Source: Bilabrum cf. latius (taxonomy: Eukaryota). Taken from it: 64,000 nucleotides of DNA. The position numbers were made by a program, and so were the translations under genes. Shown here in pieces: positions 1 to 63,100 of this stretch (position 1 is the first letter of the stretch; the number at the start of each line of letters is the position of its first letter). The notes below the pieces were generated by a model. That model did not search any database. It was not told the DNA's origin and saw nothing but the letters and a program-made list of their open reading frames with translations. The stretch is taken from positions 1,364,001 through 1,428,000 of the forward strand of contig OZ237738.1 in the NCBI GenBank assembly GCA_965178125.1, written 5' to 3'.

Positions 1-336
1 ATGTTCCGCTACGCTCATGATGCGCATAAGGACGCAACTGCTGTGCACATTGCAGCTGCTTACGGCAGACCGCTGCAGCTGGAGGTCTCCCTGGAGCGCG
101 GCAAGCACGCGGGCGCCCTCGACCTCAAGATGCAGGTGGGAGGCGCAGGGGAAGCGATGACCGCGCTCGAAGCGGCTCGGTTTGGCGGGCATGACGAGTG
201 CGTGAAGCTGCTAGAAGAGGCAGCTAAGGCGGCCAATCCGAAGAAGTAGCGCAAGGCTGCTGGGCGCGGCAAGGCCCGTGCAACCCGCGGCAGGAGCAGG
301 AGCACGAGCAAGGGCAAGCGTGGCCGGAAGTGGTAA
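1..336 (+). CDS. Ankyrin-repeat protein, 3' part (5' end probably outside the window)
   Basis: Ankyrin-like motifs TAVHIAAAYGR and TALEAARFGGHDECVKLLEE. The in-frame TAG at 247-249 is followed by a basic tail (RKAAGRGKARATRGRSRSTSKGKRGRKW) ending at TAA 334-336. Confidence 0.7.
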
Positions 337-570
337 CACCATCGCTCATGGGAATCACCGTAGCATGCGAATGAATCCAGACCTAATGTAGGCCTATGTT
401 GTCATACTCCGATCCGCTCGCATACTATCCAACCAAATTACCTTGGCAACACACCTTACAAATATCAACGAAGGAAAATGCAGAGTTTGTAGTCCCAGCG
501 CTGCCCCTACTAGTGCCGTCGCCAGTCGCAGCTCGTGCGGCGCCATGCTGGCCCGCCACCGGCCAATCAG

Positions 571-3294: not shown

Positions 3295-3394
3295 ATCCAC
3301 TAGATGCAAGCTGATACGGCACAAGAAATCGCACTGGAAGGGATCTGATAGACCGCACTGCCAGTGGTGGTTTTGGCCACAATGCAATGCAGTT

Positions 3395-4298: not shown

Positions 4299-4449
4299 CT
4301 GGTGCTAGGCGGCAACGGACGTGGTAAATTAACCAACCTATGAAGCGTGTGATCTGGCTAAAATCTGATTTTAAAATATGATACTCGGAGTTGTAATGAC
4401 GCCAAGAATCCGGCTTGAAATAAATACGTTGCAAACGTTGAAACGCACC

Positions 4450-5934
4450 ATGAGAGCAGCCCAAGTGTGTCGGCATACGTTCCGGTTGGTAAATTTGACC
4501 GGGTGCAGGTCGTTGCGCACTTCATCAAGGGCATACATGTCAACAAACCCTTTTGATCGTGCCGAGATGGGCACTCCCGATCCGATTCTGGGGCTATCTG
4601 AGGCCTTCCAAAAGGTACGTGTTGCAATCTCGTTGAACTTGGTTATTAATTGCATGGAATGTTTATAGTGCCCGCCTCTTGCAGCCATGCGGACCGGTCA
4701 TGTCGGGCTGGCAGGCAAGCAGACACGTATCACTGCTCGCAAGGGCCGTTTGCACTTCGCCATCTCCATCGTATTGCAGGACTCGGACCCTCGTAAAGTC
4801 AGTGTGGGTGTTGGTGCGTATCGAGACGATGATGGCAAGCCCTACGTGCTACCGAGCGTCCGCGAGGCTCAGAGGAGGATGGTCGAGAAGGGTCTCAACG
4901 AGGAGTACGCCGGGATCCTGGGGATCCCCACCTTTGTAAGCAAGGCAACGGAGTTCCTGTATGGGCACGACTGCTCTGCCATCAAAGAAAACCGCCTGGC
5001 GGCGTCCCAGGCCCTCTCAGGAACAGGCGCGCTGCGCGTGATGTTTACGTTCCTGCACGACCACCTTGGCGAGCGCGCCGACGGCCAGCCGCACAAGGTC
5101 TACATGCCCAACCCCACCTGGGCAAACCACCTCCCCATCGCTAGGTGCAGCGGACTGGAGCCGGCACAGTACAGCTACTACCACCCGGAGACGGTGGGCC
5201 TGGACTTTGACGGCATGCGCAAGGACCTGGAGGGAGCAGAGGACGGCTCCCTCGTCCTCTTCCACGCCTGCGCGCACAACCCGACGGGGATCGATCCCAC
5301 GCGGGAGCAGTGGTCGGAGATCTCCGACCTGTGCAAGAAGAAGGATTTCTTCGTCCTGTTCGACTCGGCCTACCAGGGCTTCGCCTCGGGCGACGCCGAC
5401 AAGGATGCGTGGGCCGTGCGCGAGTTCGTGAGCCGGGGACACCACATGATGGTGGCGCAGTCCTTCGCCAAGAACTTCGGCCTGTACGGCGAAAGGGTCG
5501 GGACTCTGTCGGCGGTGTGCAAGGACGAGGAGGAGAAGGCTAGGGTGACCGAGGCGCTCAAGCGGACCATCCGTCCCATGTACAGCAACCCGCCCATCTA
5601 CGGGGCCAGGATCGTGGACGAGGTGCTGGGGGACGCCGCGCTGGAGGCACAGTGGAGGGAGGAGTGCAAGGGGATGGCGGATCGGATCGCGAGCATGCGG
5701 CAGGCGCTGAGGTCCAAGCTGGAGGGCCTAGGCACTACGCGGGACTGGTCGCACATCACCTCCTAGATCGGCATGTTCTGCTACAGCGGGCTGGCCCCCG
5801 AGCAGGTGGACCGCCTCCGCGAGGAGTTTCACATCTACATGACCCGCAACGGGCGGATCAGCATGGCCGGTGTGACGAGCAAGAACGTGGACTACATGGC
5901 CGAGAGCATCCACGCCGTCACCGGGGGGCATTGA
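4450..5934 (+). CDS. GOT2: Aspartate aminotransferase, mitochondrial type; exons 4450-4614 and 4780-5934
   Basis: Arg-rich presequence, [36 protein letters not shown] lysine motif [16 protein letters not shown] 5764-5766 lies in HITS*IGMF, followed by the GRISMAG motif and TGA 5932-5934. Intron 4615-4779 (GTACGT...TGCAG). Confidence 0.95.
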
Positions 5935-7836: not shown

Positions 7837-9589
7837 ATGAAATCATGTAAGTACTTACCCTACAGCTCCCACTGGATTGCCTCGAGAAACTTATTTGTTC
7901 TTACTATTTCTTGCCCTTGAAAGATCGCAGATGGCTTGTCTGGTCGGTGTGGGTCGATTGATAGATATGAGAAAATAGGAAAGCTGGGAAAAGGAACCTA
8001 TGGTAAGATTTATTTGTTCTATGATTGGGTTTAGGTCGTAATATGGCTTGATTCAACCGTTCTGATGTTTTTAGAACTTGCCATGCATATGTAGGCACCG
8101 TTTACAAGGCCCGGCACAAGGACACAGGCGCACTCGTAGCTCTCAAACGGGTAATTCTGCATAGAGAACACTCAGACGGAGTGAGCACTTCGTCCAATCG
8201 CAGTGGCATGGCACCGCGGGGGCGTCAAGACTGCTTCCAGCCCACGATTTGCACTTGCCGCCCCACTCGCAGTTTCCTCTCACATCGCTACGCGAACTCC
8301 GGTGCATGCGCATTGTCCAGCATCCATGCGTGCCCAGAGTGCTCGAAGTGGCCGTCGGCCGCAAGCGCGAGTCCGTCTTCATCGCGATGGAGCTCTTCGA
8401 CACGGACCTGGCCAAGGTGCTGGACGCCAGGGGGGTGGGCTTCCCGGAGCCGCAGGTGAAGCGCCTCGCCATGCAGCTGCTTGATGCACTGCGGGAGGCT
8501 CACGCGAGGTTCGTGCTTCACAGAGACGTGAAGATGTCTAACCTGCTGTACTCGAGCGGGAAGCTCGGCCTGACCGACTTTGGACTAGCGCGACAGTCTC
8601 CCCGCAAGAGGGGCGCAGACATGTCTCCCGGGGTGGTGACTCTCTGGTACAGGCCCCCAGAGGTGCTGCTGGGGGGAAGGCAGTACGGTCCGGCGGTAGA
8701 CGTGTGGGGCGCGGGCTGCGTGCTAGCCGAGCTCCTCGTGGGCGAGCCTCTTGCTCCGGGGAGGGACGAGGCCCACCAGCTGGCCCTGTACGTCGAGCTG
8801 CTGGGACACCCGGAGTAGGAGGAGGGGGGGGAGGAGGGGGGTAAGGGGGGAGGCTCGGGCATGGGCTGTGGCGTGGGCGCAGCCGTGGGGTCATTGGGGA
8901 TGGCTTCTGGAGAACAGCATGGGAGATCGACTCTGCCATCGACTGCAGCCGTAGGCGGTGCTTGGGCTGGCGGTGGCGCCGGGACTGCAGGCACCACCGC
9001 TGCCGCTGGGTCGGCCGCTGCCCCCAGCGGTCGTGGAATTGGTGGGACAATCACCTCAGGATTGGGTGACGGAGAGGGGTACGGTTGGAGAGGCGCCCTG
9101 GATCTGCCCGCCTATGCCCGCCTCTGGCGCGCGGCGAAGCCCTGGGTGAGCAGGGCGCGGGAGAGGATGGGCACCGGCGGGGCTGGGGCTGGTGCTGGGG
9201 CTGGGGCTGGGGCTGCTGGTGCACAGGTGGGTGAGAAACGAAAAGAGGCCGGAGCTGGCGCTGGTGTGACGAGTGCGGCCTCCATGCTGTACAGGCCCTC
9301 GCTGGAGGTGCTGCTGCGGGGGCACTGCAGCGAAGAGTGCGTGCGGATGCTGCGGGGGCTGCTGCACTGGGACCCTGCCAAGCGGCTGAGCGCGGCGGTG
9401 GCGCTGGATCACCCGTGGTTCTCTGCAGCGCCGCCGGCGTGCCCGCTGGAAGCGATGCCTAGCAGCGAGGTGGCGGCGTCGCTCGGCGGCCTTGGCGCTC
9501 CTGCCTCCAGCGCGGCATCTAGATCCATCGCACGACCCGGTGCTGGAGTCGTCCCATCTAGTCGCATGGATGACGGCGATAATACCTAA
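7837..9589 (+). CDS. Cyclin-dependent kinase, CDK10/CDK11-like; introns 7847-7930, 8003-8094, 8181-8272
   Basis: Spliced frame gives YEKIGKLGKGTYGTVYKA, VALKRV, GFPLTSLRE, HRDVKMSNLL, DFGLAR, VVTLWYRPPE and WDPAKRLSAAVALDHPWF. In-frame TAG at 8816-8818; TAA stop 9587-9589. The first micro-exon is less certain. Confidence 0.85.
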
Positions 9590-9620
9590 GTGCACAAACG
9601 GAATCAGACGGGAGCCTCGG

Positions 9621-14657: not shown

Positions 14658-17179
14658 ATGGACCAAGCTGTCTTTGCGGCTGCAGCTGTCTCTACTGCTG
14701 TGCTTCTAACCATGCGGCGGGGAGCGGCGATTCGCTTCATGATCGGAAAGTGGCGAGGCCCAAACCCTAGCACCACCGCAACCGAAGCTGCTCTTACCCG
14801 TCGCTTTTTCCGGGATTCTTTCAAAGCACGCTTGGACCGCAGCCGAGCCTTTAGCAAAGCATCTGCTCGCATTGTGTCGTACAACGTCCTGGCAGACGGT
14901 CCGTACTATGCGCTATCAGCGTAAGAAGTAGGCTTTCGTTCAAATGTCGGCAGAAATGCATCGAGGCCCTGTCCAGCAGGCACGTGAATGCAGTTTATCG
15001 CGATTTCGTATTGCGCAGTCAGGGCCAGTACTGTCCGCCGGACCTTGTTGCTGCCGCCTCGAGATACCCGCGCGTTCTCAGGGAAATTTCATGGTATAAT
15101 TCGGATTTGCTCACCCTACAGGAGGTCCAGACGCCGTTCTTGCACCACTGGCTCGCTAAGCTATACTCTGCTTAGATAATGGACAGCAAAATGGCGCCCG
15201 GTTCCAGCGTCCCGGACACGGCAGAGTCGTGCGAGGACCATGGGGCGAGCAAGTTCACTCGAAGCGACTTCCTCCCCGAGCCTCCTCAGGCTGCTGGTGC
15301 TGCTGGTGCTGCTGGTGTTGCTGGTGCTGCTGCCGCCACGGGCAGGGAAGACGTGCCGCAATCCGAGGCGCAGCCATCTCTATCCGGTTCACAATCCGCC
15401 GGCCCAAGCTCCACCCTAAGCTCCAGCACGAGCCTGCTGGTGTACAACCCCCGGGTGGCCATGCCAGTGGACCCAAAGGACGAGGCCCTTGCTGCCTCGC
15501 TCACCCACTCCCCCCTGCAGCACGTAGCGCCAAAGGGCGGTGCAGCAGGAGGTCGCAAGGACAAAAAACCGAAGGGTAAATCTGGGTTCAATCCTCTGGC
15601 CACCAACGGCGATGCCACGGTGGTCCGAGGCGAGCTGGAGGTGGTACGGGGGGCCGTCGTGTCTTTCCACGCTGTAGTGTCCGCGCTGGCAGAGTGCAGC
15701 CCACTGCAGCGCGCTCTGGCTCTGCACGGGCCGGAGGGTGCGGAGTTCCACCGGGCGTTGCAGGAAGAGGAGGAGCAGCAGGCCCATCAGGAGGAGGGGA
15801 ACGAGAAGGAAGAACAAGCGAGTGGGCCATCACCGGCGGGCCCCGCCACCATGGCAGGTACGCGAGTGGCGGAGACGCTGCGCACGGTGCGGGCCAGGAA
15901 GGACGGTGCGGTAGTGGTGCTTGCCAGGCACAAAGCCAGTGGCAGGCTGCTCCTGTCTGCGCAGTCCCACCTCTACTACCACCCGTCCAAGCCGCACGCA
16001 AAGGCCATGCAGGCGTGGTGCATGGCCATGGGGGCCAGGGCGCTAGCCTCCTCCTTGGGGCTTCAGGTGGATGACTCAAGCCAGGATCGGATCAAAGGGG
16101 GCGGCCAAACCGGTGGTAGATCGGATCCTTGGCAGGCGGTGGAAGAGGCCTGGGATGCCGTGGCGGCCAAGGTGGCCAAACGCGTCGGGCTGCCTGGTGA
16201 AAGCGGTGGTGCCCTTGGTCCGGGGTCAGGATCGGGCTCAGATCCCCGTCGCAGTGCTAGTGCCGGGGCCAGTGCTGATGGACAGAGCAAGATTCCCCTG
16301 GTCATCTCGGGCGATCTGAACAGTTTCGCGGGCAAGTTCGCCCACCAGCTCGAGCGAAAGTTCGACACAGCGGACCCAGAGGAGTGCGCGGCATTCCGAG
16401 CCGCTGCAGAGGCGAGCGTGACGAGTGCGAACCGAGGTGATGGCGGTGGCGGTGACGATGAATCGGGTGCGAAACAGGCCGGCAAAGCCCTGTGCGGGTC
16501 CGAGGTCGAGCACAGTGAGAGAGTGATGGGTGCACCGCACTGCAGCGGCTCCTCCCGCGCGGAGCTGGACCTGAGTGGCGCTGTTCCCTCCGGGGTGTAC
16601 CGGCTTAACGTGGATGGGGTGCTGCCCTGGTGGGACGCAGACCATCCGAACAGGCGCATGGGCTGCACGGCGGGGGAAGGGGGCGCGGTGGCGGTTCGGT
16701 AGCTGCCCGAGGCCGAGGCCGAGGCCGTGGGGCAGGGCGAGGGCAGGGCTGGCTCTAGTGGGCGCGACTCTGTGCCCTAGGAGGCGCGGGAGGCGAGCAT
16801 GAGGCGGTTGCGGGCAATCCAGAGTGGTGCCGCCGATGAGATCGCGGCTCGCCCCGGGTCCGCTGCCCCCTCCATCGTGCTGCCCGTAGCCCCGCTTCGG
16901 AGTGCCTACGCCCTTGGTCGGGGCAGAGACCCGCCGGTGACCACCAAAACTACGACATTTTAGGGGGCACTGGATCATCTGTTCGTGAGCGGGGCGGTGC
17001 AGGTCGAGCGAACTCTTGACGTGCCCGTGCGACCAAGCCAGGCAGGTGCTTCAAGCGATGCCGCCGCCGGCGATTGGCGCCGAGGGGTGCAAGCACCGAC
17101 GGATGCCGAGCTGCCGCCCATCCCAAACCATGTATGGGGCTCGGACCACCTGGCAGTGGGGGCTGACATTCGTTTCTAA
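14658..17179 (+). CDS. Endonuclease/exonuclease/phosphatase family protein (CCR4/PDE12/Angel-like); intron 14921-15018
   Basis: Family motifs in order: RIVSYNVLA, LLTLQEV, SHLYYHP, VISGDLNS, LRSAY, TTTF*GALDHLF, WGSDHLAV. In-frame TAG at 15173, 16700, 16778 and 16961; TAA stop 17177-17179. Confidence 0.85.
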
Positions 17180-17331
17180 GTAGGAGCGCGGCACGATTGA
17201 TCCCGAGGAGATCGCTCCGAGTCTTTGGGCCTGTGATCACGATGTTGTGTTGCACAGATAGGCAAACGAATTGCGATTGATAGATCTATTGCGAATATTG
17301 TAAATTGCTTTGTGCGAACTTGACCATCAAA

Positions 17332-18446: not shown

Positions 18447-21400
18447 TCACAGCTGGCTAGCTCCTGCGCTGCCTCCGTCTCCCGCCGCCGAGCCAGACTC
18501 TGAACCCGGCGCTGGAACGTCGATCGTTGGCGGCTAGAAGCCACCTGTACCACGCGTGTCCTGAGTGTGGGCCTGGGAGTTCGGTTGGGCCTGGGCCTGC
18601 AACCCACCGGCAAGCGTTGCCGCACTCGCGTGCAATGCACCTGACGGGTCAGCCCTACTTCCCTCTGGTCCGACTTGCCCTTGCACCGAGCGAGGCACGC
18701 TGCTATTGCTATTGCTGTTGCTGTTGCTGACGGCCACATGCCCGCCACCTCCAGGCACCACGAATTGGGCCTAGTGCTGTGGCAGCTGCACTTGCTGCTG
18801 CGCCTGGAGTGGATGCTGCAGCGGGGAGGGCGCATACCCGTAAAGCCCCTGCGAGCCAGCTTGTTGCATGGGGAGTGTGGCTCCCGGCCCGAAGACCGGC
18901 GACCCCGGGTTGGGATGGTGGGGCTGGTACCGGTACTGCTGCGCAGCACCATGCAATGCACCGGGTCCCGCGGTTGGGTGCTATCCAAACAGCTGCATCG
19001 CAACGGCAGCTGGGGGTGGCTGCCCCTGGAGGACAGGCGTTCCGATGGATCCACCCGGCACTGGCGGAATTAAGCCTGCTGCGCTTCCGCCGCTTCCGCT
19101 GGCGGGGCTCCCAGCGGGACTCGGCATGGAAGGGGCCCCTGTAGAAAAAGGAGCAGCGGGCATGACTGGTGTGCCCTGTGCGGGGGACACAGCGTGCCCC
19201 TGCCAGCCGAGCACGTGCTGCTGTGGGGTGCCAAACGGAGGCTGCTGGTACACCGGCTGCTGTTGTTGCGGCTGATAAGGGGCGTGTTGCATTGCGACGG
19301 GGACTCCTCCAGTCGATGTTCCCTGCGTCAAGCAAGCTCGGATCCCAGCCACTGCTCCCACCACAAGCAGGGTGGCAAGCACGCCCGCCCCTGCAGCAGC
19401 CCCCACCTCCAGCCTCCACTGCAGCAGCTCCACCTGCTCCTGCGCGGCCTTGGCTTGCCGCTCTGCCTGCCTCACCCTCTGTTTCAGGTCGCCTACATCA
19501 TCTTTGAACCCATAGGCCATCAACATAATCTAGCTTAGACCGCTCTTCAGCTCGTAGGCTACGCTATCTGACAGGTCCAACACAGTCGAGGCACTCCTGC
19601 TGCCCGAGTCACCCCCGCTTTCGCCCTCGCTACGACTGCTGGAACCGTCCCCTCCGTGCCTTTGATCGCGACTTCTTGCGTAGGCGGGCGACGCAGAACC
19701 GCCACGATGAAATCGATCGCGCGCCGCGTGTCCACTGCCAGCACTGCAACCAAGCTGGTCGCACACAGCCTATGTGCCGCTGCCGTCGCCGCGAGTGCCA
19801 CCGCTCAGCAGCACGACCCCGGAGTCAGATGCAGCCGCAGTCTGGTCCAGCAGCTGCGCTGCGGTGGCAGCAGACAGCTTTCCGATCGCCCCCACCAGCC
19901 GCCTCGGCCACTCTTCTACCTGGGCCTGCCAATCAGACGTGTCAATCATGCTGGGCACCTTGCCAGAGCTGCTCAATATTTGGTCATGACCCACTGTGCC
20001 GTTCCGATAGCGATGGCGATGCCTGGCAGCTCTGGGCGAGCAGCCGGTCCTACCAGCATCCAGAGCTTCGCCCGAAGCAAGCACCTCTGTCGCATTCGAT
20101 GCGTCGAAACGATCGCACCGATCCCGCCCGTGCAGCTCCCACGGCCTGTCCGTTGCACGGGCGCCTGTGCCCCCCTCTCGAACCCCTGTGCCCCCCTCTC
20201 GAACTCCTGTGCCCCCCTCTCGAACCCCCCCTGCCACGGTAGGATGCCCGAGCATGCGAGTGCCAGCGGCTGCGGCGGCCTCCGCTTGAGATCTCGCTAG
20301 CCAGTCGACGCACAGGCCACCGGAGCACTGCAAGGCACTTGCCTGGGCCTCCAGGGACACCAGCAAGGCTTCCACAAAGGCGATAGAGCTCGCAAGCGAG
20401 GTGCCGTCAAGCTCACTCCCAGCCATCGTTCCGTTCGCGGACCCCCACGGCGCGTTTGAAGCATCGCCATTCCTGCCCGCACCACGAGTTTGTTCCCTGT
20501 CCAGTTCCCTGGCCTTGCGCGCCTCCTCGAGCGCGTCCACCCTTCCAATCAGCGAGAGCTGGGACTCGAGCACGCCGGACAGTTGCAGCCGCATCGACTT
20601 GGCCAGCGTCTCCAAGTTCCGAATCTTGGCGCGACTAGACTTGAGCTCTCGCACTGCAGTGTCCTGCAGCCGCTAGACGTACCTGTACAGCGTCACGTGG
20701 TCCTTTTGCAGGGCAGTGATGCGGGAGAGCAGGGGGCGCCACGGGCTGTCCCCCTTCTTGACCTGGTATGCCTTTGAGTCTGCCCTCATGTTGTACAAGG
20801 GAATTCGCCGTAGCTTATCCAGCGGTACTGGGTTGGGTGCGCTCACCTGTCCAGGGGAGGCTGTTCGGTTGGCAGGGCCTCTGGTGCGGTTCGATGGCTT
20901 GCTTGTCACCGTACCACCAGCGGGGGATGGACTACCACCACCAGCAGTGGCGTGGTGCAACAGTGCAGCTTGCTTGGCTGGGAATCGACGGGCAGTGGTG
21001 TTAGTGCCGGTGCTGTTACTGGTCTACCCACTGACATCCACGCCCGCGCCAACTGCCGCAGAGCCGTCAGGGCCGGCAGAGCTCGTGTTGGTCGATGCAG
21101 GGCCCTTAGGCTGATCTGAGGGCACCACACCCTGCTCAGCTTGCGTTTCTTGCACATGTGCGCTACCACTCAAATGCGTGGGGGTTGCATTGAGTCCCTC
21201 CATGGTGTCATTCGATGCCAGTGTCTGGTTGGAGCTCTCGGATTCAGGGCTCCCAGGCGAGGCACCTTGTCCTAGGCCGCTGTTCGGATCTGGCTCTCTT
21301 GCTGTTGAAGAGCTGTAGTTCTTGCTCTAGTTCAAGTCAACAAGACCTGCCTCATCTGCGCTACCTGGTATTCGACTCAGCACGGGCTCCATTGATCGAG

Positions 21401-24400
21401 GCTTAGCCTTGGAAGAAGGTACTGCTGCGTCCTCAGCCAAGTCTGCCTCGACCGCCAGATGCCCTGCAGCCGCTTCCTCCTTGCCATCCTCGGGCAAAGC
21501 GGTGGCTTGTGGCGTTGCAACGCGTGAAGGGGGATGGCTTGCTGCGAATGAGGGACTCCCTGCCGCCGCATTGTCTGCGATTAGCTTTCCACCCGACTAG
21601 TGCTCGCCAGCATCTTGCTGCTGGCTTTCGGTCTGCTGACTAGCATGGTCGTCGGGGACCGGCTCAGGCACGGCTTCAACTATGCCAGCCATATCATTCA
21701 AGACACTGGCAGCAAGACCCTCATTTTCCGTCTTGATTGTCCCAACGGAGCCTTCTACTGCCGCAACAGTGCGAGAGGGTAGCGTGCTATCGTCTGTCTA
21801 AGCCGCTTTTGTCACGCTATTTAGGGCTTGCCCGCTGGAATCAGGCGAACGAAGTGCAGCTCCAGCAACTCCAGCCGCATCTACTGGCGCGCCCTCTCCT
21901 TCTCGCTCCGATCCTCCATCGCCCGGCATAAGGGACTTGGACGGCCCCTACTCGGAGCGCTCGTGCATTTGCTCAGCTACTTGGGTCGTGCCGCCGGTAG
22001 ACGCGTCACTCGGCTGGACGCCACCTTCAAGTGCGGGCCCCTCCGCATTGCCAGCTGGTGCACTAGCAAGGGAGTCAGCACCTGCTTGAGGCTGCACCGA
22101 CTGTTGGGCCTCACTGTGAGCTTGGGTAGCACCCGAACTAGCATCCGCATCAACGGAATGCGATTCGCTTGCATCTGCGATTGGGCTAAGGCTAGCTGTG
22201 TCCGAGGCAGTAGTGCTTGCCGCCGATGCGCTGTTTACTGCTTGCTCACCAGCGACAAGTCCAGTCAGATCCACCAACCGGCTGCTGCTGCTGCCATCGT
22301 TCTCACCCAGAGAACTATCTCTTGCAGCACCCTCTACCGCGGGCTCACTCTCTGGCTGGTGCCCCCCCGCCCCCCCATGTCCCTATATTTGCGCCTCCGC
22401 GCCAGCAGCTTCTTCTTCGCCAATCGCAACCGCAATGCTGACACCCACCGCCTCGGTGGCCTCGTCCTCGTCCTCGTCCTCCACCTCGTCCTGCTCGTAT
22501 ATGTTGGCCAGGTCTTCCTGCACTGCTTTGAGCATCTCCGCTTCGATGTCTGCCTCCTGCTCGAACTTTTGGGTGTGCGTGCGCCCGTACACGCTGAGCG
22601 TGGTCATGGTGCACATGTCCTCCAAGCCGTGATACGACTCCCACTCCAGCTTGAGGAACCGGGCCTCAGCTGAGTGCGCCGTGCGGAAGACCTGCTCCTC
22701 CCTCGTGTCCTTGGCCTCGAAGTAGCCGATCTGCACCCAGTCGCTGCCCCCCTTGTCCATCCCCGTGTACACTCGGAACCTGCGCACGCCAGACGCGTGC
22801 CGCTCGCTGTTGGAGATGGCGACCAGATCCACGTGGATGTCGCTGCCTAGACGCACAAGCACCCATTTTTCCTGCTAGGTACAGTCCGCCATTGCGTACT
22901 TATCTTGCTGTCGGTCCAGCAGGTTAGCTGCGTTGTGAAAGGAGGGCGAGCTGGCGGTCAGCTCGGCACCCACAGACGACGCCGCGAAGTTGATCATGCC
23001 CGTCTCAGACGCAGAGTCGTCCTCAGGTCCCATTGGCTCGGCAAAGGGCAGGGGCGTTGGGGCTGCTTCCGAATCTTCATGCTGCTCTGCTGGTGCTGCA
23101 GCTTCTTTTGTGGCATCGGAGACAGCTGCAGGATGATGCTTCTCCTGACCACCGAGAGACACTTGCTATGGTTCAGCTGAAATTCCTGCGTCAGCGCCGC
23201 CCGAAGATTCCTCGACCGGCTCTTCGCGGTCGTTCGCCTCGCCATCCTGCACCAGCCCGCCCTCTCCCAATACGCCCATGCCTTCCTCCCCCGCGTCTGC
23301 TGCCTGGCTATCGTCTGCAACGATGTCCCTTGCGCCAGCAGCAGTAACTTCCTCGCCTGTATCCGCTGGCTACTTCCCAGTCAAATTCTCATCGCTGGCA
23401 TCGTTCGACTTCTGCATCGCTTTCGAGTCCCCAGAATGCTCGGCTTCAAGGTCGGGGGCAGCAGCAGTAGCATCAGCACCGACACCAGCACCGACACCAG
23501 CACCAGTACCAGTACGGCTGGGGGCGACGGCAGCTGCGTTGCCCTAATTCCCGCTGCTCTGTCTCGGCTCTGCAAAACTGTGATCGGAATCCTCCGACTC
23601 AAGCTATGGCTGCGCCTCTGATGCATCACTGGCTTGCTAGTTCGAACCGGCCGTACTGGTACTGGTACTGGTACTGGTACTGGTACTGGTACTGGTACTG
23701 GTACTGGTACTGGTACTGGTACTGGTACTGGTAGTGGCAGTAGTTTCGGTGGCGCTGCCATTGGCAACAATTGAACCCTTGCGTATACTGGCCTAGTCGC
23801 CGCGCTCTTTTCCCAAGCCTGGATTTGGCCTAGCACTCTCAGCCGTGGGCTGCACGCCACCGGCCCCTCCGCCCTCCACCTTCCGCCCGTGGCGCCCACC
23901 CTCCTCATCCTCCTCCTCCGCATTTAGGCCATCGGAATCGGCGGTACTCTTCTGCGACTGCCCCACCTTGGGCGGAGAGTGCTAGGCTGAATTAGAGTCC
24001 GTCTGACCTTGCGACACCATAATGTCATTTCCAGCGACAGTCGCGCTATCCGAACTAGCCATCGACCAGGACACTGGTTGCCCAGTTACACGTGTGGGGG
24101 CTGCGCCTTGTGGTTCGCGCGGTTCGGATGATGTTCCATCAGTCTATTGCATACAAAGCATGGGATCTAGCGGCGGATTTTCTTGACTTGCGTCGCTCGT
24201 AGATTCCTATCGTTGCTCTGCCGCCACGTTGACGGCGCTTGGTGAGGCGGTGGTGACGATGCTGCCTGAGCGCGCTGGGTACTGCATTGAGCTCTATTCC
24301 ATAGCACTCGCATGCGCGAACTGCTAACCCATGTCATGATTCGTTGCAGCGGTTGCCTCAGACAAGATTGCCTCTTGAGATGACAGCTGATTGAATGCAC

Positions 24401-39600: not shown

Positions 39601-42600
39601 CACGGTCATACACAACCAGCAGAGCGTTCTTGATCTCGTCCTCGTACACGGTGACGTACTTGCCAAACCCACCGCTGTAGGTCCACTCCCTCCTCGCCCG
39701 CTTGCCACCGAAGGCCTCCTCTGCCAGGTACTTTGGATTGAAGGGGGTGACTCTGTGATCGTCGAACCGCCACCACTAGCTCGTGGCGCGGTCACGGATG
39801 AACGAATAGTAGTGGCCCGATGTAGCCGTGCCCGTGTGGACGACCACTCCGCTCAGGACGAACTCGTCCTGGTCACCTGTGGGCACGCCGGCCGGACCCC
39901 AGATCGCCTCGGGCACGCCCGACGCTCCCGTCGTCTCCCCGGCAGCGTCAGCCTCCTTGGACTCGGAGGCGCCGGCACCTTGCTGGCTGCTTGTCGCCTC
40001 GCCCTCGCTTGCCGATGCCGCCCCTCCGGCATCAAAGGAGTCTGGGTCGTGCGCCCAGGCGGTGAAAGGCGTGAAGTCGATCCGGTGAGGGAAGGCTACC
40101 CGGTCATTCTTCTTTTCGAACACGTACTCGCCGTTCTTGATAACGCCTCCGAATCGGGCTAGGCCCAGCACCATCGTGTCGGGAAGCCGCATCAGGACGT
40201 TGCCGCGCTCCACCTCCGCCTTCTTGCCGCAGTGGCCGCACGCCACCCCGGAGATGATCTCGCCTCGCTTCCAGTTGTGCAGCGCCGACACCACGTCGGG
40301 GTTGTCCGCACTCACCTGCAGCTGAAGGGGGAATTGCAGCTCGGGGTCTCGGATGTCCTGCGCCCCGCAGCACCCCACCCTGCTCATCGTGGAGGACCCC
40401 TCCGTCCCAAACACCTTGTCCGCTTGTAGCCGCAGGGCAGGTTCCCTTGATACGCGCATCACCGGTCGCATGGCGTCCAGTAGCTTGAGCATGAACTCGG
40501 AGGCGTCGTTCTGGAGCTTGAAGTGGTGGCCCAAACGCAGCACCCCAAAGGACTCGATCAGCGGCGTGGGGTCGTACGCCTGCGCCTCGCTGTGCCGCAA
40601 CCAGACAAACGCCCTCTGCAGCTCTGACACGAGCCTTCGGCCATCAAGCGTGCGCTTCCTGTCATCCAGCGCCCTGCCGGCCTTGCTCTTGATGTCTTTG
40701 TCGAGATCTTCGGGCAGCTTCGGCATGGCACGGGCTTTGTCGCCTTCCGTTTCAGCGTCATTGCCGCCTTCCTTCTTGTCTTCTTCGCCCTTGCCCTCCC
40801 CCTTCTGCTTCTTCTCCTGCTCCTCCTTTTCTTTCTCTTCAGCCTGCTGGCGCTCCAGGGGCGAAGGACCCAGCTTCTCCCGTGCCTTCGCCTCTGCCTC
40901 CTCGCTGGTGGCTCCATCCTTGATGGCAGCTTGCTTCGCCTTGGAGTACTCCTCCTGGTACGACCTCTGCGCCTGCTTTCGAAGGTCTTCCTCGTCGCGG
41001 AGCTTGCGCTTGCGCTGCTCCTCCAGCAACCGAGCCTCAGCCGCGCGAGCTCCGCGCAATTCGGGCACCGGGACCGGCACGTCTACCTGAGTCAGGGCGT
41101 GCCTCATGTGCGGGGTCATGAACAGCTGCTGCAGCACGCTGTTGGCATAGCACGTGGCACCCAGATTAAAGAGGCCGACAAAGCCCTCTTGCGCACGGCC
41201 ACTCGCCTGATCCGCCACGCTCCATTCCTTGCCAGGCTCAACCTCCAGAGCCTGGCCAAGGGTGCACCTGTGGATGAGCCGCAGCAGACCCATGAACCAC
41301 TCGTGCGCGGCGTCCGACATGCCCTCGCTGCGGATGGCTGCCTGCCTGCGGTCCACCTCCAGAGCGCCAGGCTATGGACTGCACATGGCCTGCCTTCTCC
41401 CCGGCAGCTCATCCTTGATTCCGAGTCTTCTCCGCTCATCTGAGCTCAGGTCGCCCTCGTCCTCGATCTCAGCCGCGAGCCGCACGTTGATGCTGCCGTC
41501 AAGGCCGGCTTGCAGCTTGGCCTGCAGCGCGATTCCCACGCTCATCGCCTGCAGACTAGCGATTGTCGCACCCATCCTGGAGGCAAGAGGCACTCCAATT
41601 GACGCAAAGATGACTGCCTGCAGCAGCCCATAGGCTGCAGTCCTTTCGTCTTCGGTGCGGCACAGCGGCCACACCTCTTGCTCGCTTGCTGCTGCAGCGC
41701 CCGGCGGGCCGCCAACAGTCAGAGCTGTGGAAGCCCCCACTGCTTCTCTGTCCTGCGAGCTTTCGCCTGCCTTCTTCTCTTCGTCCGTGTTGCCACCATC
41801 CGTCGCATTGGTGTACAGGCAATGCTGCACCACGAAGCTTGTCAAGAGCGCGCGCAACGGGGCCAGCGACACGCCTGCCCCCGCACCTCCGTCGGCTGCC
41901 TCCGCCTAGTCCAGAGTCTTGTCCACATCACCGCCCGAGCGCAGGCAGGACTCAAGGTCCTCAAGGCGCACCACTGCCTGGGCGAGGTCGGGCGATGCGG
42001 CCGCTGTGCCGTCATCTGCCAAGCGCGGAATGCACACGCTGGGAGCAAGCTCCGTGTCCCTGCCCGCGAAGGCAAGCGCGGCAGACACACGCAGGCAGTC
42101 GATGAGAAGCTTCCTGGATTCGATGACAGTGACTTCGTCCTCATCCTTGTCCTCGCCCTCGCCCTCCTTTTGCTTGCCCTCGCCGTCCGCTGCTGCAGCT
42201 CCGCCCGCGGCACCACCTGCCGCAGCATCCGCGCCATCCGGTCCAGCCGGCGGCGGGGCCTCTTCACCTTCAGCGGATTCTCCTTGCTCCTGCCCCTCCT
42301 CCCCGTGCTCACCTCCACCGTCCTCTTCCTGCCCGCCCTCCTCCTCGTACTCGTCGGCTGCAGCTGCAACGTCCCCGCTCGACGTTTGTGCGATTCTCCA
42401 TCGCAGCACCACACCAACGATGCGGGCGAGGAAGAGACCAACCTGGCGGGGCCCGCCGTCAACCGCATACCTCGCCATCAGCTCCAGGACGTCTGCCCCC
42501 CGAGGGTGGGACGCAGGTAACCGTAGCAACACGCGGTGCAGTGCAGCGCCCTGCAGCGCAGTACCCTTGTCTGTCCGCAGTGCGGGCAGCGGCAGCAGCC

Positions 42601-45600
42601 TCTCCCTCACTGCCTTCCTGACTGACTCGAGCGGCGAAGACGCAAGCACCGCAAAGAGCGCGTCGGCGGCGTCCTTGAGCGAGAGCATCTGCTCGCCGAT
42701 TGTAAGCGCGCCCGAACCAGCCCCAGAACCAGCGCCCTCGCCCTTGCCTGCGCCCCCGCTCAGCCCCTCGCTCAGCACGAACTCCAGCAAGGCAAGGCTC
42801 CGACGAGCCGCCTGCTCTGCCACAAACTCCGTCGTGCACACCGCCTGCGTTGCCATGCCAGCAGCAAGCCCCATGGCAAGACCAGCGGCGCTAGCAGAAT
42901 CAGCCTCGCTGGCGTCTGACCCTGCACGAGCCAGCGTCGCTTGAGCTTGCTTGGCCTGTGCAGTCGTGTCATTCAAAGAGGCGCCGCGCAGAACATGAGC
43001 CAGTACGCGAGCGAGGGCCAACAGCCCACCATACTCCGTGCTGTCACCCGACCCCGTAGAACCGGCTGCCTCCGAATTGGGACTGTCGGAATCCGACGCC
43101 AGCGCTGCCGCCGCGGCCCTCGCGGTGTCTTTTGTGAGGCGGCCTGCCTGCATGCAGTGCCACAGGACTGCCAAACCAGCCACCAGGACGGCTCCCGCCC
43201 TCGCGCGGGCGAGCTGCCCCGGCGCCTGACCCTGCATGCCGCGCAGGGCGGCGCCCACTGCGCGCATGGCCTGCTCTAGTCCACCGGTGGAGCAGAATGC
43301 CTCGAGGAACTCCTCTCGAGCGCGTGCTTTCTGCGTCGACTTGCCAGTCGGCATCACTCGCCCGTTGATGGCCTGCAGGCCATACAGGGCTCGCCAGCCG
43401 CTGCCGTGTATGGCTTTGCTCCAGCAGGTGGGCTCGTGTCGATCCAGCAATGCATCCAGCCTGGGCGACGTCGGGAGGTCGAGAAGGGCGCACCATGCTC
43501 GCTTCTAGACGCGATCGGGCAGGTTGCCAGCCTCTTTGGGTCCTGCATCGTTACTCGCACCAGCAGCACCGGCAGGCGCACCATCTCTCTGCTCGAATGC
43601 TCCCTCGCCCAGGATGCGGAAGAGAACTGCATATTGCTCCTCACACAGGCGGATGGGACCGACGCGTTGGATCGTTGGTTGACTGATGCTGTCGTCTTGC
43701 ATCGTCCGGAGGAGGATCCGGCTCTCGAGACCAGCAGCGGCCTTTGAGAGTTCGTCCAGCTCGGCTGGATCCGCCACCTCCAGCTCCTCCTGTCCCTCTC
43801 CGTACACGCCCTCCTGCACACTTCTCTGCCTGCGCATCACGGGCGCGAGCAGCTGCCCATGCTCCTCCTCAGCCTCCTCTTCGGCTTCCTGCTGCAGCTT
43901 TGGCTCGTCCACGCCGGGCATGTCGCCGTCCAGCGCTTGCAAGTCGCCGAGCCACATCTCGCACCTCTCACCGTGCGGTCCTGCCTATGGCTGCGAGTGC
44001 AAATGCTGGCGGCTTGCCACCAAGCCCGTGTACAGCTGCAGGGCAGTGAGGCACCGGCTCACCAACTGCCTGTTGCTGCGGGCAGCTGCGCTCCCTGGGC
44101 TGGCCGCCAGCGCGGTCATGGCAATGTCGAGCTCCGCCGTTAGCACGTGAGCCAAAGCATGCACCCCTATCCCGGCAGCAGCAGTCACAGTGGCACGCTC
44201 GAGCACTGCCTGAGAATCAGTCGCGCCACCATGGCCCACTGCGATGAAGTGGCGCACCGCGTCGAAGAGCAGCTCGGCCGGAGGCTCTTGCCCGCTCCTG
44301 CGGCCTCCGTCAGATCTCGAAATGTACGCAATCTGGCTGCTGCGGAACAGCTCTAGATTCGTTGTGCTGGCGATAGCTGCATGCGAGAGGAAGAGCTCCA
44401 CAGCGGCATCGGCAGCCGCCCTTGATTCCCTCACGGTGCCTCGTGTGGCAACCGCGTAGATGGGACCGATGGCCGCCAGCTCGCGGGCTGCGCCGGCGCC
44501 CATTTCGGCGCCCTCTATGGCTGCGAGCAGCGACGCTACGGCGCCCTCGGCCTTGGCAGAGCTAGCTCCTGCTCTTGACTCTGCAGCGGCCTCAACAGAG
44601 TGGGCAAGCATGGGTTTTAGCAGAGCCTCAGCCTGGACCGGCTTCCCCCTCCGTACAGAGTCCAGCATTACCACCACAGATCCCGGCGTGGCGCGGTTGT
44701 AGGGCTTGCAGATCGCTTCCCTGACCTCCTGCTTGCGCTGCGGTGAATCCTTGCTGCCATCGCCTGGGTCTGCGAACGTGTCCCGATTCTTGTACCGCTC
44801 CAGCATGATCGGAGCACAGCTAAGCGCATCTGCACCAACCAGCATAAGCCGCTATACGCCCCAAGTCTCCTTGATCTTGTCATAGTTGAGATATATGGGA
44901 GAGTCCGGACGCATCTTCCGGCCATTCATGGTGATGAAAAGAGTCAGCAGGCACCGGAGGCCGTCAGGTCCAAGTAGGTCCGGGTTGAACCGCGGACTCT
45001 TCGGCTCGAAAATCTCTGACAGCACCCCTCGAAGCGCGTCATGCGACAGCAGGCAGTCGTCCATGGTTTGCACACCCTTCCTATCCCCTTTGTTTCGCAC
45101 CAGATTCATACGGTACGACAAGCAGTAGCTAACCTTGGCAGCCGTCCCGCTGCCGTCGTCGCTCGGGAAGAGCGCGAGACTCACCTTTGCAAGCGTGGGG
45201 TAGTCGATCGAAAGTTTCCTAGGCTCAAGCCTGTTCCCTCCAGCGGCTCTCGAGATGAAATCGAAGAAAGCGCGGCGACCCGCCCGCGTGCGGCCAAGCG
45301 CGCCGTCCCAGAGAGTGAGGACACTCTCCTGTGTCAGCCGATCCCGCAGCAGGGGCGAGATTCTCATGATTCCGTATAGCGTAGCCAGCCTGCCTCGGAT
45401 GGCGTACAGCGGTGGCACCTCGTACGTGCGTCCGTACGCAACCAGCTCGGCCTGCATGGCCGAGAAAACGCCCAGTCTCATCTCAAGGGCATGCGTAACA
45501 TCTGCCGCAGCAGTGCCATAGAACGCCCCATTCGCAAGGCCGACCTCGGCGGGCCTCTGGAAGGCATGCACCAGTGTTGCCACCACGTCAAGGGCGCGGA

Positions 45601-48491
45601 GCAGAGGGTCGCGATCGGGCCGCATGGGGCGTTGCACCGCGTCTGCTTGGCCATCCGCGCTCTCCCCTTGTGCCACTCCACTGCTGCTCGCAAGCTCCGC
45701 CCCCTTCGGAATGCTCCGACCGCTCCTTGTCAACGCGTCCAGGTGAACCTTGGCCCTGCGCCGCATGAACGAAGTGATGCGGTAGCCTAGCTTCATGGTA
45801 GACAGCGGCGCTTGCATGGCGAAGAGCGTGCGACACGCCTCTTGCAGCGAATTGCAAGACCGAATGGCCCGAATGGTGTCCGAACTCAGATCAAGCCCCT
45901 GCTACAGCTGCTTAGCCTTCTGCTTCTTGGTCTTCTTCGAAGCACTGCCGGTTGCGTTCCCCCCATGAGCGCCGAACTCCGTCTCGTTCCAACCAACCTT
46001 CGGGGCTGGGGGCGCCTCGATCAGAATCGTGGGCGCCTGTGGGTGCAGCAGAATGTACCACACGAAGTCTTGCATGGCTTCCTCGTACGACCTGTCGTCT
46101 TCATCCGCGCCAACCTCTTCCTTAGTCTGACCCTCAGAGTCAATAGCGGCGGAATCACTTGCTCCTGCACCGCTCGATGCCGCACCAGCCTCGGATTCAA
46201 CTGTACCGGCGCCGGCACTCGCAGCACCAGCACCAGCGGCAGCGATTGCAGCCGCGTGCCCCTCTCGTTCCGGCTGCGCGAGCAAATCCCGCACGGCGTC
46301 AACCCCCGCCAGTTTGGCAAGCTCGACTGCCACCACCGATTGCTTGTAGGCCCCGGCCGTGGACAGCCTGCCTCCGATGCGGAAATCAGCGTGGTCTCGC
46401 ACAAATGCCACATCGTCTGATGGCTTTCCAAGAATGGCAACGTCGGCAGCCCTCTCTTCTAGTAAGCTCTGATCGAGTGCCTCTGCCGCCCGCTTATGTC
46501 TGGCCTCAGCTGCCTCCACCTCTCCCGGGGATCCCTCCTTCTTTGATTCGCTCGCCTTGCCCGCCCCCTCCTTGGCCACCTTGAGGGCGTGCTTGGCACT
46601 CGCCAGCGCGGCGCGCGGGGTCTCGGGCAGATCCAGTTGTTCCAGAGCGCTGGCAGCATGGTGCGTGCAAGTCTGCGCCTGGTGCTTGGCGATGATCTTG
46701 CTGGACCACCTTCTCAGCCGGTTGGAGTCCTCGTTGAACTGCGCCAGCTCGGGTCCGATTGCCGCGACAGCCTGAAAGTTGCCGTCTGCCTGCCGGGCGA
46801 GAAACCGCAAGATGCCTTTGGCAGTGTCCAGCGAGCTCTGCTGCACGCAGATGAAGAAAAACTCGGCGAGTATGTCCCTCTCCCGACCTGGGGAAGCCCT
46901 CCTGACCGCCTCGAACAGCTGCTTGACGTGCGCACCGCGGAGGCTGCCGCTGCTGGCCAAGCACCGAAAGACGGGCTTGCTCCTCTTGAGAACCTCAAAA
47001 TGGATGTTGGATGGGTTCAGGATCGCAGCCACGACGTCCACGTCGGGGTGAACCAGCCACTCGCAAATGTCCGCACAGGTGAAGCTGCCTTGCGCACTTG
47101 GATCCTTGCCATCCCCGATCTGCTTCTTGGTGGTATCGTACACCTGGGTCAGCAGGGGAGACAGCGAGTCCATGGCCGCGGTGCGCTCCGACAGTTTCTC
47201 CGATTTCATCCCTTTCTGCACCGTTGCCAGCCTGAACGCAACCAGAGCTCCCTACTGGCCCAGTGCGGTCTCCACCATCTCGATCACGTCGCCGATTTCT
47301 TTCTCTACGCCGGTTCGCTCCTCCTCTGACAGCTGGGGCAGGAGCTTGAGCGCCTCTACGCACTTGGCAGCGAGCGGCTCTGCCTCCTTGGGGTCCGTCA
47401 CGGCTGGCGGCAAGAAGGCCTTCTCGACTACCTCGGCGTACTTGGCCGGATCCATGCCTCTGTAGATGCGGTTGAACCCGAGGGACTCGCACTGCCGGAG
47501 GGAGTGCGCGGTGGCAGCCAGGCCGGGCACCACGTGTAGGATCACGGCAGCCACTTCCTTCTCCCACTCTTTCTTGGCCTCGTCCATCGGCACCTCGGGG
47601 GCCCCTGCTAGCAGGGCAGCCACGTCTGCCACCTCCTGCTGCGCGCCTTGATCATTTCCCTTATGCTAGCCGGCGCTGGCATCAGCTGCAGCGCCGGCGG
47701 CGGCTGCAACACCGGCGTCCGCTGCAGCGGCCTCTGCCTGTGCTTGCGCCAATCGCATGCTCGCCTGCTTGGCCTCGGGGCCGGCCAGGACCCGATCGAT
47801 GCACTGCACTGCAGCGGGGGCCCAGACCTTCACGCTGGTGGTTGCCGCCCCGCAGTACATTGACCGGATGTGCCCCTGCGGTAGTAGTACATTCCAGGTG
47901 GCGATCGGTGTGGCAAGTAGCATCAGCGGTGGGAACTGGCAGTCTCAAGAGTGCAGCACGACTTGGTCTCACCTGGTAAGTTTTGTATGCTGCGCTTCCA
48001 CTGTTTCGTAGCATTTCATACACGACCTTCTGCGACTGATAGCGCCCTCTGTGCAAGTGCTCGGTGAGCAGCCCGAAGAGCTTGGCCGCGCCGCTAGCTA
48101 CGGTGTTGACGTTGTGGTCCTCCAGCTTGCTTGTTATGATCAGGCGCATTCCTACTGAGAACGTCGGTCCAATATCATTATCAAGCTCTTCACGGTCGAT
48201 AAATTCGGTGGCTGCATCTGCAGCGCTCTCAAACGCCTGCGATCAGAGAAGATCGTGGGTGAGCAAATGTATCTTGGATGCGATAGAGTGGCACTGTGCA
48301 GCCGCTCCGATAGCAAGCATGAAACTTACACCGTAGGTGATGTACTTCTCTCCTAAGCAATTCGATTTTGCGGTCAAGATCGCCCCGTAGGCTTTGTCCC
48401 ACTTGTCTGAATCAACTCCGTCGGCACTCAGTGGTCCGCTCGTTGTCCCAGTCCCACCGGCTGGCTTGAGTGCACTGCACATTTCACACAT
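33611..48491 (-). CDS. Giant ubiquitin-specific protease (peptidase C19, USP9/24/34-like), ~4,900 aa; exons 48330-48491, 47973-48236, 33611-47875
   Basis: Cys box GLFNLGATCYANSVLQQL, QNDASEF, His box GVVVHTGTATSGHYYSFIRDR...*WWRFDD. At least 13 consecutive track ORFs share one frame and all end in TAG. A UBA/CUE-like C-terminus precedes TGA at 33611. Confidence 0.85.
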
Positions 48492-59873: not shown

Positions 59874-60153
59874 CTTCCGAAGCTTTGCGGCTTCAAAAGT
59901 CAATGAGAAATGTGTGTATGGGTTATGGAGTGGAAAGAAGCCGATCCTCTGGTTTTGCTATGCAGCGGTTGTGAATGTGTTCGTGCCCCGAGCGACCAAA
60001 GGTGGACAACTCGCAGCTCAGCTTCGAGCATGAACGGAGTCGCTTCTTTGTGCCTCCTAGATCGCGACTCGAGCGTTTGGCACTCAGAGCAGATTCATGT
60101 AAGCTTGTTCAATATCACAAACACACTGCCGCCCCACAGTCACAGTCCAAGCG

Positions 60154-63100
60154 TCATTGCGGCTGCTTCCTCCTCTGCTTCCTGGGCGGTCGCCCGCCGC
60201 GAGCCTCGCCCAATGTACCGCCTTTCTTGGATGCCTTTGAAGCTGAATCGTCCTCTCGCTTTCGTTTTGATCCTAATCGCCGTCCTGATGCCTTCGAAGG
60301 ACCGGCAGATGAGGCGCCTTGCCCGGTTTCACCCGACGGTTCACCACCTGCAATGCCTCCGACCCGCCGGGCGGCCGCAGCTTGAGCAGCCTAGCGAGCG
60401 AGAATCCGATCGATGCTTCCCAACAGAAGCAATTTCTTCTTTTTGGCTGCGGAACCCCTTCCGGTTCCCCACGGCGCATCGATCGCCTGTTGCGTCATCC
60501 AGTGCACCACAAGGCCGAGCCCAACAACAGCAGTGCCGTCCGCCACAGCTCCTCGCATGGCCTTGCTCACCTTGTCTGCGACGATCAAAGCTGGTTCTCC
60601 GCTCTTCGCTGCATCTGCTACGGCGGCGAGGCTTCCCAGCGTGGCTCCGCATGCGGCGGCGAACGCCTTTTCGTGCTTCTTGCCAGCATGCGCATTGACA
60701 CCGCACAGGAGACGCCAGCCCTCCCCCTCCCACCCTGCCTCCTCCCCGCGCGCGTTCCTTCGGGCTATGCTGCCTTCGATCGTAAATCCGTTCTCCTTCT
60801 CTGCCGCCTCGTCGACCGCCACGTGCTCCGGGGAAGAGGGATCAACCACGACACCCTGCTCCCCGCACGCCTCGAGCCACGAGGGGCGTACCACGCAGCA
60901 GCGGCGGCTCAGCGCCACGAGCAGCTTCTCGGACCGGCGGCCGTCCCCCCTTGGCTTGAGCACGAGCACCGTCCCGTCCGACACCTCGTCCGCTAGCCTG
61001 AGCCCGATCGCCTTGAGGACGGCCTCGGCCTGCTTCTGCTCGCCCGCGTCGTAGTTGGACAGCACCACGTCCTTGGGGACGAAGCCGATGCCCTGGCCTG
61101 GGCCCGCCCCGCCTGCCCCCGAGGAGGGGCCGGAGGCGGGGGGGGCAGGGGCGGGGGGTCTAGCTGAGGAGGAGGCGCTGCTCGAAGATGAAGAAGGTTT
61201 CGATCTGGTGGAGCGCCGGCGGAGAAGGGGCGCCCCTGTCCCTGTCCCTGCCCCTGCCCATGCCCCCGCCCCCCCCGCCGAGGGGGGCGGGCCCGCGGCT
61301 GCCTGTGCGGAGGTCTCTGCTTCGTTCGGGGCCTTGGATGCCTTGCGGGTCCTCTTGGAATTCCTTGCTGCTGCTTGTCTGCCTCGCTTCGAGGAGGTCT
61401 TGGAACTCCCTTCAGCTGGCAGATCGTCCGATGGATCTTTCCCCGAATCCGGATCCTTCGCGCCTGGAGGGTCACCGGATATGGCTGGATCCGACACCGG
61501 ATCTTTGGATCCCTTCGGCTTTACGGCACTCTTCTTGCCTCGCTGTCCCTGTCTGCGCCGCCCTTTCCGGCCAGAACTGCTTGGCTCGGGTGCTCGCCCG
61601 GCGGGGCTGGCTGGCCTCTCGGCGCGGCCTTGGTCACCGCCATCGTGGGAGCTCGAGCCAGCTGCCAGGTCCTACTTGCGTTCGGGGTCGTTTCCTGGAG
61701 CCTTAACATCCTCACTTTTAGCTGCATCTACACCTTTGGCTTGTGCAGATCCCTACAGCTTGGAAGCAGCCGCAAGGCTCCCTTTGCGCTCGCTCTGCTG
61801 GCCACCGGAGCTCGCCGGGGATGCTGGCGGTCTCGTTGCAGCGGAGACAACTCCGGCCCGCGCCGCGACTAGGCTTGCTTCTGCCTTGCGCTCAGAGTCG
61901 TTGCTCTCATCGGCTTCAATCTGCTAGAATCTCGCTGCCGGCTGCGCGACATCCCCATCAGACTCGCCACCCGGCAGGCGTGCTGCAGCCATCCCTTCCG
62001 ATTCGTCGATGCCGTCTATTTCCTCGTCTTCGTCGCCTTCGTCCTCATCCTCACCACCATTCATGAGATGATCCCGGCTTCGTTTCTATGCAAGCAAAGA
62101 TTGGCGCCTGCCTAGCCTTGAGGCAGAGACGATGCCTCGACTTGGCCGTGTGCCATCACTGCCGGGTCCGATTTGGCGATGGCTGCCCCTATGATCGGAT
62201 GGAGAGCTAGGAAGCATCAATGGGACATCAGCATCGTCCATGCTGCCAAGTCCTAGTGCATCCTGGGTGTCCTCCATCACCATGGTGCCTCCTGCGTACA
62301 TGTCTGCCTCCCCGCTGACGTCCTACTCGAGGCCCATGCCAGAATCGGCCGCTTCAGCACCATCCTACTGGGAGCCTCTCAGCGATGTTGCCCTACCGCT
62401 CTATGGAATAGCCTCATCGTTCGCTCTATCGGCATCGTTCGCGCCGTTCGCGGCTGAGGATGAGCTACTGCTGCACGCGGTGCCAGCTGGACCGGCCTTG
62501 CCAGTGGCGGCCTACTGGCTGTCATGCTCTTGTTCGTTGTCATCGCCCGCGGCTTCCAAAGCTTGCGATGAGAGCCCAACATCAGGAATAGCTTGCGTCG
62601 GAGCGGTGGCAATGTCGCCGTACGCCTGAGTGGGAGCAGTGGCAACCGGCATGGTCTGAGCCGTCTGGCCTCCAGAGGACGAAGACGTAGATGACCCGCC
62701 CCGCGACGACCCCGACGCCACTCCCTCCTGCGCGTCCCAGTGGCGACCACCCGCAGCAGAGGGGTTGTTCTAGCCGTTTCCATCCACGGCACCTGCAGCT
62801 ACGTCGGCCGGGAGGACCTGCGTGGCATCATCATCATCGTCGTCTGCGTCTGCGTCCCAGGAGACCTCCCTCACTGCCTCTGCAGCGTCCTGTGCTTGCA
62901 CAGCTAGCGCGGCATCGTCTTGGGATCCTTCTGCAGGCCTGCCGTCGGCATTAGCTGCGGCTGCGGCTGAGCTGCTCGACGAGGCGGCACTACTACTGCC
63001 GCTATTGCTCGCTGCCTGCGCATCCACTTGCGAGGCTGGTGCAGACTGGGACGGGAGAGCGTCGAGCGCCTTGGCGACCGCAGAATCGGCTCTCGCGAGC

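Follow-up and report, generated by a model that had tools for sequence, protein, structure and literature searches.

The genes on a 64-kb stretch of eukaryotic DNA (contig OZ237738.1, positions 1,364,001 to 1,428,000; the whole stretch of 64,000 nucleotides is called the window in the following) most probably follow a variant nuclear code. We propose, with a probability of roughly 85%, that in this intron-bearing eukaryote with a GC content of 62% UAG specifies glutamine and UAA and UGA are the only terminators, the pattern of NCBI translation table 15. An original prediction, made from the letters of the window alone, had claimed that UAA and UAG are uncoupled here, and within the window this is well supported: TAG is a sense codon, and TAA and TGA terminate.

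UAA and UAG are nearly always reassigned together, and each case in which the two codons part tests how the termination machinery distinguishes them and whether a tRNA with the anticodon CUA is sufficient on its own. A GC-rich, intron-bearing organism with public DNA and spliced-transcript data would be a new setting for such a test, unlike the ciliates or the fornicate. The code also has a practical side: gene callers that apply the standard code truncate the proteins of this lineage (database protein P0124, see below), so that its database entries contain systematic errors as long as the code is not specified.

TAG is a sense codon in the genes of the window

The GC content is about 62% across the window, which holds ordinary eukaryotic nuclear genes. 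The gene set was built from a codon-usage score together with Pfam matches and resulted in 20 gene ends; codons were tallied over 18 coding intervals with 16,477 codons, terminal stops excluded. Pfam matches comprised an aspartate aminotransferase (AAT), the ribosomal protein uL18/L5e, a protein kinase, an endonuclease/exonuclease/phosphatase-type nuclease, a SUN-domain protein, a cystinosin-like PQ-loop protein, a Ras-family GTPase, IMP dehydrogenase (IMPDH), Derlin, a class-II DAHP synthase, a GH16 hydrolase and a mitochondrial carrier. Several long low-complexity proteins are encoded in addition.

In-frame, the coding intervals hold 93 TAG codons and not a single TAA or TGA. When the same DNA was read in the +1 and +2 off-frames, we counted 105 and 97 TAG, 37 and 55 TAA, and 234 and 306 TGA codons. 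The earlier claim that no traced frame is interrupted by TAA is thereby borne out. With three stops the longest stop-free frame has 917 codons, and it grows to 4,778 codons once TAG alone is opened; further frames then reach 2,019, 1,404, 1,282, 1,251 and 1,220 codons, and the six longest frames keep the same length when TAA is opened as well. TAG lies within the domains of AAT, Ras, IMPDH, cystinosin, the carrier and the nuclease, and UAG accounts for about 12% of the glutamine codons in the window.

The TAG codons are also found in spliced transcripts. Contigs of the runs X5-X7 contain joints at 24495/24588, 27171/27270 and 27810/27998, which leave out 92, 98 and 187 bases bounded by GT..AG and mark spliceosomal introns, whereas run X1, which is DNA-like, does not skip these introns. 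Because of the intron-skipping joints, we treated X5-X7 as transcript-derived. Contigs of run X5 cover 21 of the 24 in-frame TAG codons of the SUN-domain protein gene (18447..24332, minus strand, TGA stop), and they cover all four TAG codons of the nuclease gene (14984..17179, plus strand; TAG at 15173, 16700, 16778 and 16961) together with its terminal TAA (17177-17179). One contig from a spliced run spans 15019-17265 over the nuclease gene without a break, and no base differences were listed at the window among four runs from three studies. TAG is translated, and it is neither spliced out nor edited in the spliced transcript contigs.

The density of TAG is very uneven. Two low-complexity proteins, both encoded on the minus strand (18447-24332 and 56358-59873), contain 24 and 14 TAG codons, compared to 0-2 in each of the conserved housekeeping genes.

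TAG stands at glutamine positions

One case for the identity of the residue is the mitochondrial-type AAT gene (4537..5934, plus strand; exons 4537-4614 and 4780-5934; TGA stop), with a TAG at 5764-5766 within the stretch ...WSHITS-x-IGMF.... In a MAFFT alignment this column is Q in 119 of the 120 listed homologs. The remaining homolog, P0124, is a database protein with 98% identity that ends exactly before the TAG column, as expected of a gene caller that applies the standard code. Q also occupies this site in the three best solved mitochondrial aminotransferase structures with alignments shown, and the syntenic metagenome contig L001, which stems from a relative, carries CAA there.

A second case is the last exon of a Ras/Ral-like GTPase (26635..27171, minus strand), in which two adjacent TAG codons (27079-27084) follow the DTAG motif as DTAG-x-x; the first of the pair aligns with the switch-II glutamine of RalA. 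The upstream exon holds the P-loop GKGGVGKT, and a joint in the runs X5-X7 demonstrates the intron between both exons (27172-27269). In the IMPDH gene (exons within 27998..29650, plus strand, TGA stop), TAG occurs at 28178-28180 and 29594-29596 within conserved stretches, where other IMPDHs presumably carry Q. In addition, many TAG codons adjoin runs of Q. Although few invariant columns are available for naming the residue, the alignments identify TAG as glutamine, standing at glutamine positions.

The AAT intron (4615-4779, plus strand, GT..AG) is in frame with a length of 165 nt. It contains neither TGA nor TAA and one TAG, so that a naive reading of the open reading frame (ORF) adds 55 false residues; the AAT intron of L001 does contain TAA and TGA.

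TAA and TGA close the genes

The 20 gene ends consist of 16 TGA, four TAA and no TAG. The original prediction had given the same tally, which was here obtained in an independent gene set with one weak TGA end, and the four TAA codons lie exactly where it had placed them: at 334-336, 9587-9589 and 17177-17179 on the plus strand and at 26635-26637 on the minus strand. The TGA ends are located at 5934, 26360, 29650, 49752, 51121 and 55687 on the plus strand and at 571, 3945, 6414, 9842, 18447, 29874, 31102, 33611, 56358 and 60154 on the minus strand; the weak one (3945) is that of a poorly supported ORF without Pfam match, located within a duplicated segment. As the ends were called with TAG as sense, the absence of TAG ends counts as independent evidence only for genes with a conserved C-terminus, which are AAT, Ras and the nuclease. 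For AAT, 114 of 119 homologs do not extend past the last residue of the query.

To remove the circularity of assuming TAA as a stop, frames were bounded by TGA alone. The only places in which TAA then occurred were 5' flanks, introns and the four 3' ends. In the 18 coding intervals it is absent in-frame (0/16,477). If TAA were used like TAG, 9.5 codons would be expected from the A/G ratio of TTA/TTG (0.093), with a probability of about 1e-4 of finding none, and 29.5 from the ratio of CAA/CAG (0.24), with a corresponding probability of about 7e-12.

Two of the TAA ends fall directly at expected C-termini, as had been described before. The Ras protein ends with ...GGMCMIL followed by TAA, and read-through would add six residues; a cysteine at this distance of four residues from the end is the prenylation box of the Ras family. 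The nuclease ends with ...GSDHLAVGADIRF, again followed by TAA. Its Pfam match is under the curated cutoff (20.1 vs 24.5 bits), and a search among 1.84 billion representative proteins was used instead, while a search of the PDB for the nuclease gave no match. Among the representatives, 121 homologs were found at E<=1e-3. In 61 of them the match extends into the last 8 residues of the query, and 41 of these 61 stop no more than 3 residues from the corresponding position. For the C-terminal alignment, 41 homologs were picked where the match reaches the C-terminus of the query: 27 finish 0-3 residues past the final F, and the top match together with two more of the four best-scoring aligned homologs ends exactly at this residue.

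The other two TAA ends belong to an ankyrin-like gene and a protein kinase gene. Of the former, only the 3' end lies in the window (1..336, plus strand; in-frame TAG at 247-249) and the gene continues beyond it; its Ank match is weak (18.7 bits, under the cutoff). The next in-frame TGA follows 88 codons past the TAA, through DNA of 45% GC, and the convergent neighbour ends at 571. The last exon of the kinase gene (8066..9589, plus strand; Pfam Pkinase, E 1e-42) has a C-terminus that is not conserved, and the convergent gene ends at 9842, about 250 nt from the TAA. All four TAA ends face the end of a neighbouring gene or of a contig within a few hundred bases.

Weighing of alternative readings

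Under an ordinary code in which both UAA and UAG mean glutamine (UAR = Gln, the type of NCBI table 6), TGA would be the sole stop and TAA would be rare through GC pressure. Such pressure is visible, as the window has 62% GC and codons ending with A are disfavoured (the share of TTA among TTR is 9%, that of CAA among CAR about 24-25%), but even so 9.5-29.5 in-frame TAA codons would be expected and none is present. Read-through would also bury the CMIL box of Ras 6 residues from the end and extend the ankyrin-like gene by the 88 codons with 45% GC. An in-frame TGA does follow within 6-13 codons after three of the four TAA codons (6, 7 and 13), yet this short distance is not special, since beyond the TGA ends the next TGA is 2-161 codons away, with a median of about 23; a leaky TAA with a backup TGA was rejected for the same reason. 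We therefore regard the UAR = Gln code as highly improbable. A context-dependent code of the Condylostoma/karyorelict type, with TAG as glutamine inside genes and as a stop near mRNA 3' ends, is unlikely. TAG closes 0 of 20 ends, a small sample in which calling TAG as sense would hide TAG stops wherever C-termini are not conserved, but in AAT, Ras and the nuclease, whose C-termini are anchored, the conserved end is directly followed by TGA or TAA. Five genes carry TAG in their last 30 codons; against a terminating role, the late TAGs of IMPDH and of the carrier protein precede conserved domain sequence, and at least one 3' untranslated region is not minimal, with a contig extending 86 nt beyond the TAA.

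That TAG is sense for another residue (such as Glu, Ser or Leu, by analogy with other UAG-only codes) appears very unlikely to us. The sole fully invariant column, that of AAT, shows Q in 119/119 readable homologs, and the relative has CAA at this site; the Ras switch-II column agrees with glutamine, and TAG often adjoins Q runs. On the other side, homologs have Glu or Asp in two of the TAG columns, and further ones are variable (e.g. A, S, E, R, Q). For an artefact, be it pseudogenes, assembly errors or UAG->CAG RNA editing, we found no supporting point, and its probability is close to nil: 93 TAG codons with neither TGA nor TAA in-frame are not a pattern of decay, four runs from three studies agree on the bases without any other letter being listed, and an independent protein search retrieved the 98% identical AAT protein, which breaks off at the same TAG.

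Several observations weigh against our own reading of UAG as glutamine with UAA and UGA as stops. Twenty ends in 64 kb are a small sample, and rare TAG termination or rare sense TAA may remain. Homology anchors only two of the four TAA ends (Ras and nuclease), and 14 of the 41 aligned nuclease homologs are at least 4 residues longer than the query, so that a 7-codon read-through would fit the spread in length. Regarding the residue, the second TAG of the Ras pair aligns with Glu, the TAG column of the carrier protein is E or D in homologs, and three other TAG columns are variable, including those of cystinosin (M, V) and of the nuclease (41 homologs: A 11, S 9, E 5, R 5, Q 4, T 3, others 4); the columns of cystinosin, the carrier protein and the nuclease vary too much to identify the residue. 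None of the runs that contain the window is on record as RNA; X5-X7 are only guessed to be RNA, with X5 flagged as probably DNA, and their status as transcripts rests on the intron-skipping joints. Finally, L001 has no in-frame TAG in AAT or L5, and both of its genes end with TGA.

Further genes and features of the window

The longest frame (33611..47944, minus strand; 4,778 codons) contains 19 TAG and no TAA and is bounded by TGA on both sides. Based on Cys-box and His-box motifs in a single uninterrupted frame, it reads as a putative giant USP-type ubiquitin hydrolase; one metagenome scan with the 4,777-residue protein gave no relative. For an IQ-motif protein, a protein search returned no match at E<=0.001.

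The Derlin gene (29874-30862, minus strand) has at least three exons and ends with TGA at 29874-29876. A distance of 224 nt separates it from the IMPDH stop, and directly downstream of the gene follows a (CA)n-like microsatellite. Ribosomal protein L5e (6414-7520, minus strand) carries an insertion of about 40 residues within the Pfam domain, where 163 profile positions extend over 202 residues, as well as a long acidic tail; the insertion is common to the relative. A direct duplication with 84% identity was found at 3401-3800 and 3862-4250. Each copy holds a minus-strand ORF (3494-3718 and 3945-4328), and both encode similar Ala/Gly-rich peptides without Pfam match.

Possible mechanism of the reassignment

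A tRNA with the anticodon CUA reads UAG only, and the anticodon UUA would read both UAG and UAA (PMC11687900). In our model a tRNA-Gln with the anticodon CUA would read UAG alone, as C34 does not wobble to A, and UAA would for this reason be left untouched. Termination at UAG would either have been lost through a change in eRF1 or be out-competed by tRNA-Gln(CUA), and the TAG codons would have arisen from CAG/CAA via C-to-T changes after the reassignment. The original prediction had put forward an eRF1 that accepts UAA and UGA and rejects UAG. This is possible, and the data do not force it: in the rhizarian with UAG = Leu the classic eRF1 motifs have no obvious change (PMC5304391), and competition by tRNA(CUA) alone could therefore be enough. 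ARAGORN and Rfam found no tRNA or other RNA gene within the window, and there is no eRF1 gene among its Pfam-identified genes.

Placement of the organism and comparison with known codes

The best named matches of L5 are diatoms, Chrysoparadoxa and Bremia with 45-48% identity. For AAT they are brown algae, Tribonema, Chrysoparadoxa, Hondaea and oomycetes with 58-62%, and fungi reach 55-58%. Closer relatives have 98, 89, 85 and 73% identity in AAT and 81% in L5. One of them is represented by L001, positions 1-2808 of which are syntenic with 4537-7254 of the window: both hold a convergent AAT/L5 pair, with a nucleotide identity of 79% for AAT and 81% for L5. A single-gene tree of AAT was calculated from 34 rows selected from 120 matches, with P0124 standing for the window. 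Here, a long branch carries the clade of the window, apart from both the stramenopile and the fungal groups. In the literature searched, which contains few of the subscription journals, no reassigned nuclear stop codon was listed for any stramenopile, nor any paper that matches this organism.

The known changes of UAG alone that the original prediction had listed (the fornicate Iotanema spirale, a rhizarian and some ciliates) form an incomplete set, to which Protocruzia tuzeti, Hartmannula sinica, Trochilia petrani and Scotinosphaera have to be added (PMC11687900). UAG as glutamine with UAA as a stop is described for Iotanema spirale (Fornicata), whose eRF1 carries the change T32G (PMC5304391). 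The ciliates P. tuzeti, H. sinica and T. petrani likewise read UAG as glutamine and keep UAA and UGA as stops, and two phyllopharyngean lineages are among these codes (PMC11687900). Other residues are assigned to UAG in the rhizarian exLh and in three ciliate metagenome-assembled genomes (Leu; PMC5304391, PMC11687900) and in Scotinosphaera (Ser; PMC11687900). The codes of exLh and Scotinosphaera resemble that of the window in that UAG alone is reassigned and UAA is kept as a stop, and differ in the amino acid, for which the data from the window indicate glutamine.

In the UAR = Gln codes of many ciliates, hexamitids, Streblomastix, some Ulvophyceae and Amoeboaphelidium protococcarum, stop codons have likewise turned into glutamine codons, and TAG probably derives from CAG, as in the window. 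The difference lies in TAA, which is also glutamine in these codes, with both TAG and TAA reported as such for A. protococcarum (PMC6299283), whereas in the window it is absent in-frame and ends genes.

Iotanema shares with the window the same codon change and the retained meaning of UAA, and it is likewise not a ciliate. In contrast to Iotanema, the window encodes a mitochondrial carrier and a mitochondrial-type AAT, has a GC content of 62% and finds its best named matches in stramenopiles. Fornicates are anaerobes with reduced mitochondria. The UAG-only ciliates agree with the window in UAG as glutamine and in UAA and UGA as stops, but they use UGA least (PMC11687900), whereas TGA is the main stop of the window (16/20; TAA 4/20). 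The window is, moreover, GC-rich, has introns of 92-187 nt and lacks ciliate features. The organism does not fit any of the known carriers of UAG = Gln.

Taken together, we are dealing with a code of known type in a probably new lineage. More tentatively, and with slightly less than even confidence, we consider an independent origin of UAG-only (Gln) reassignment in a GC-rich, UGA-dominant lineage without a reported nuclear code change, either affiliated with the stramenopiles or on a deep branch of its own. If true, this setting would be the opposite of the AT-rich ciliates, and AT-driven codon capture of UAG would not be the general route to such a code.

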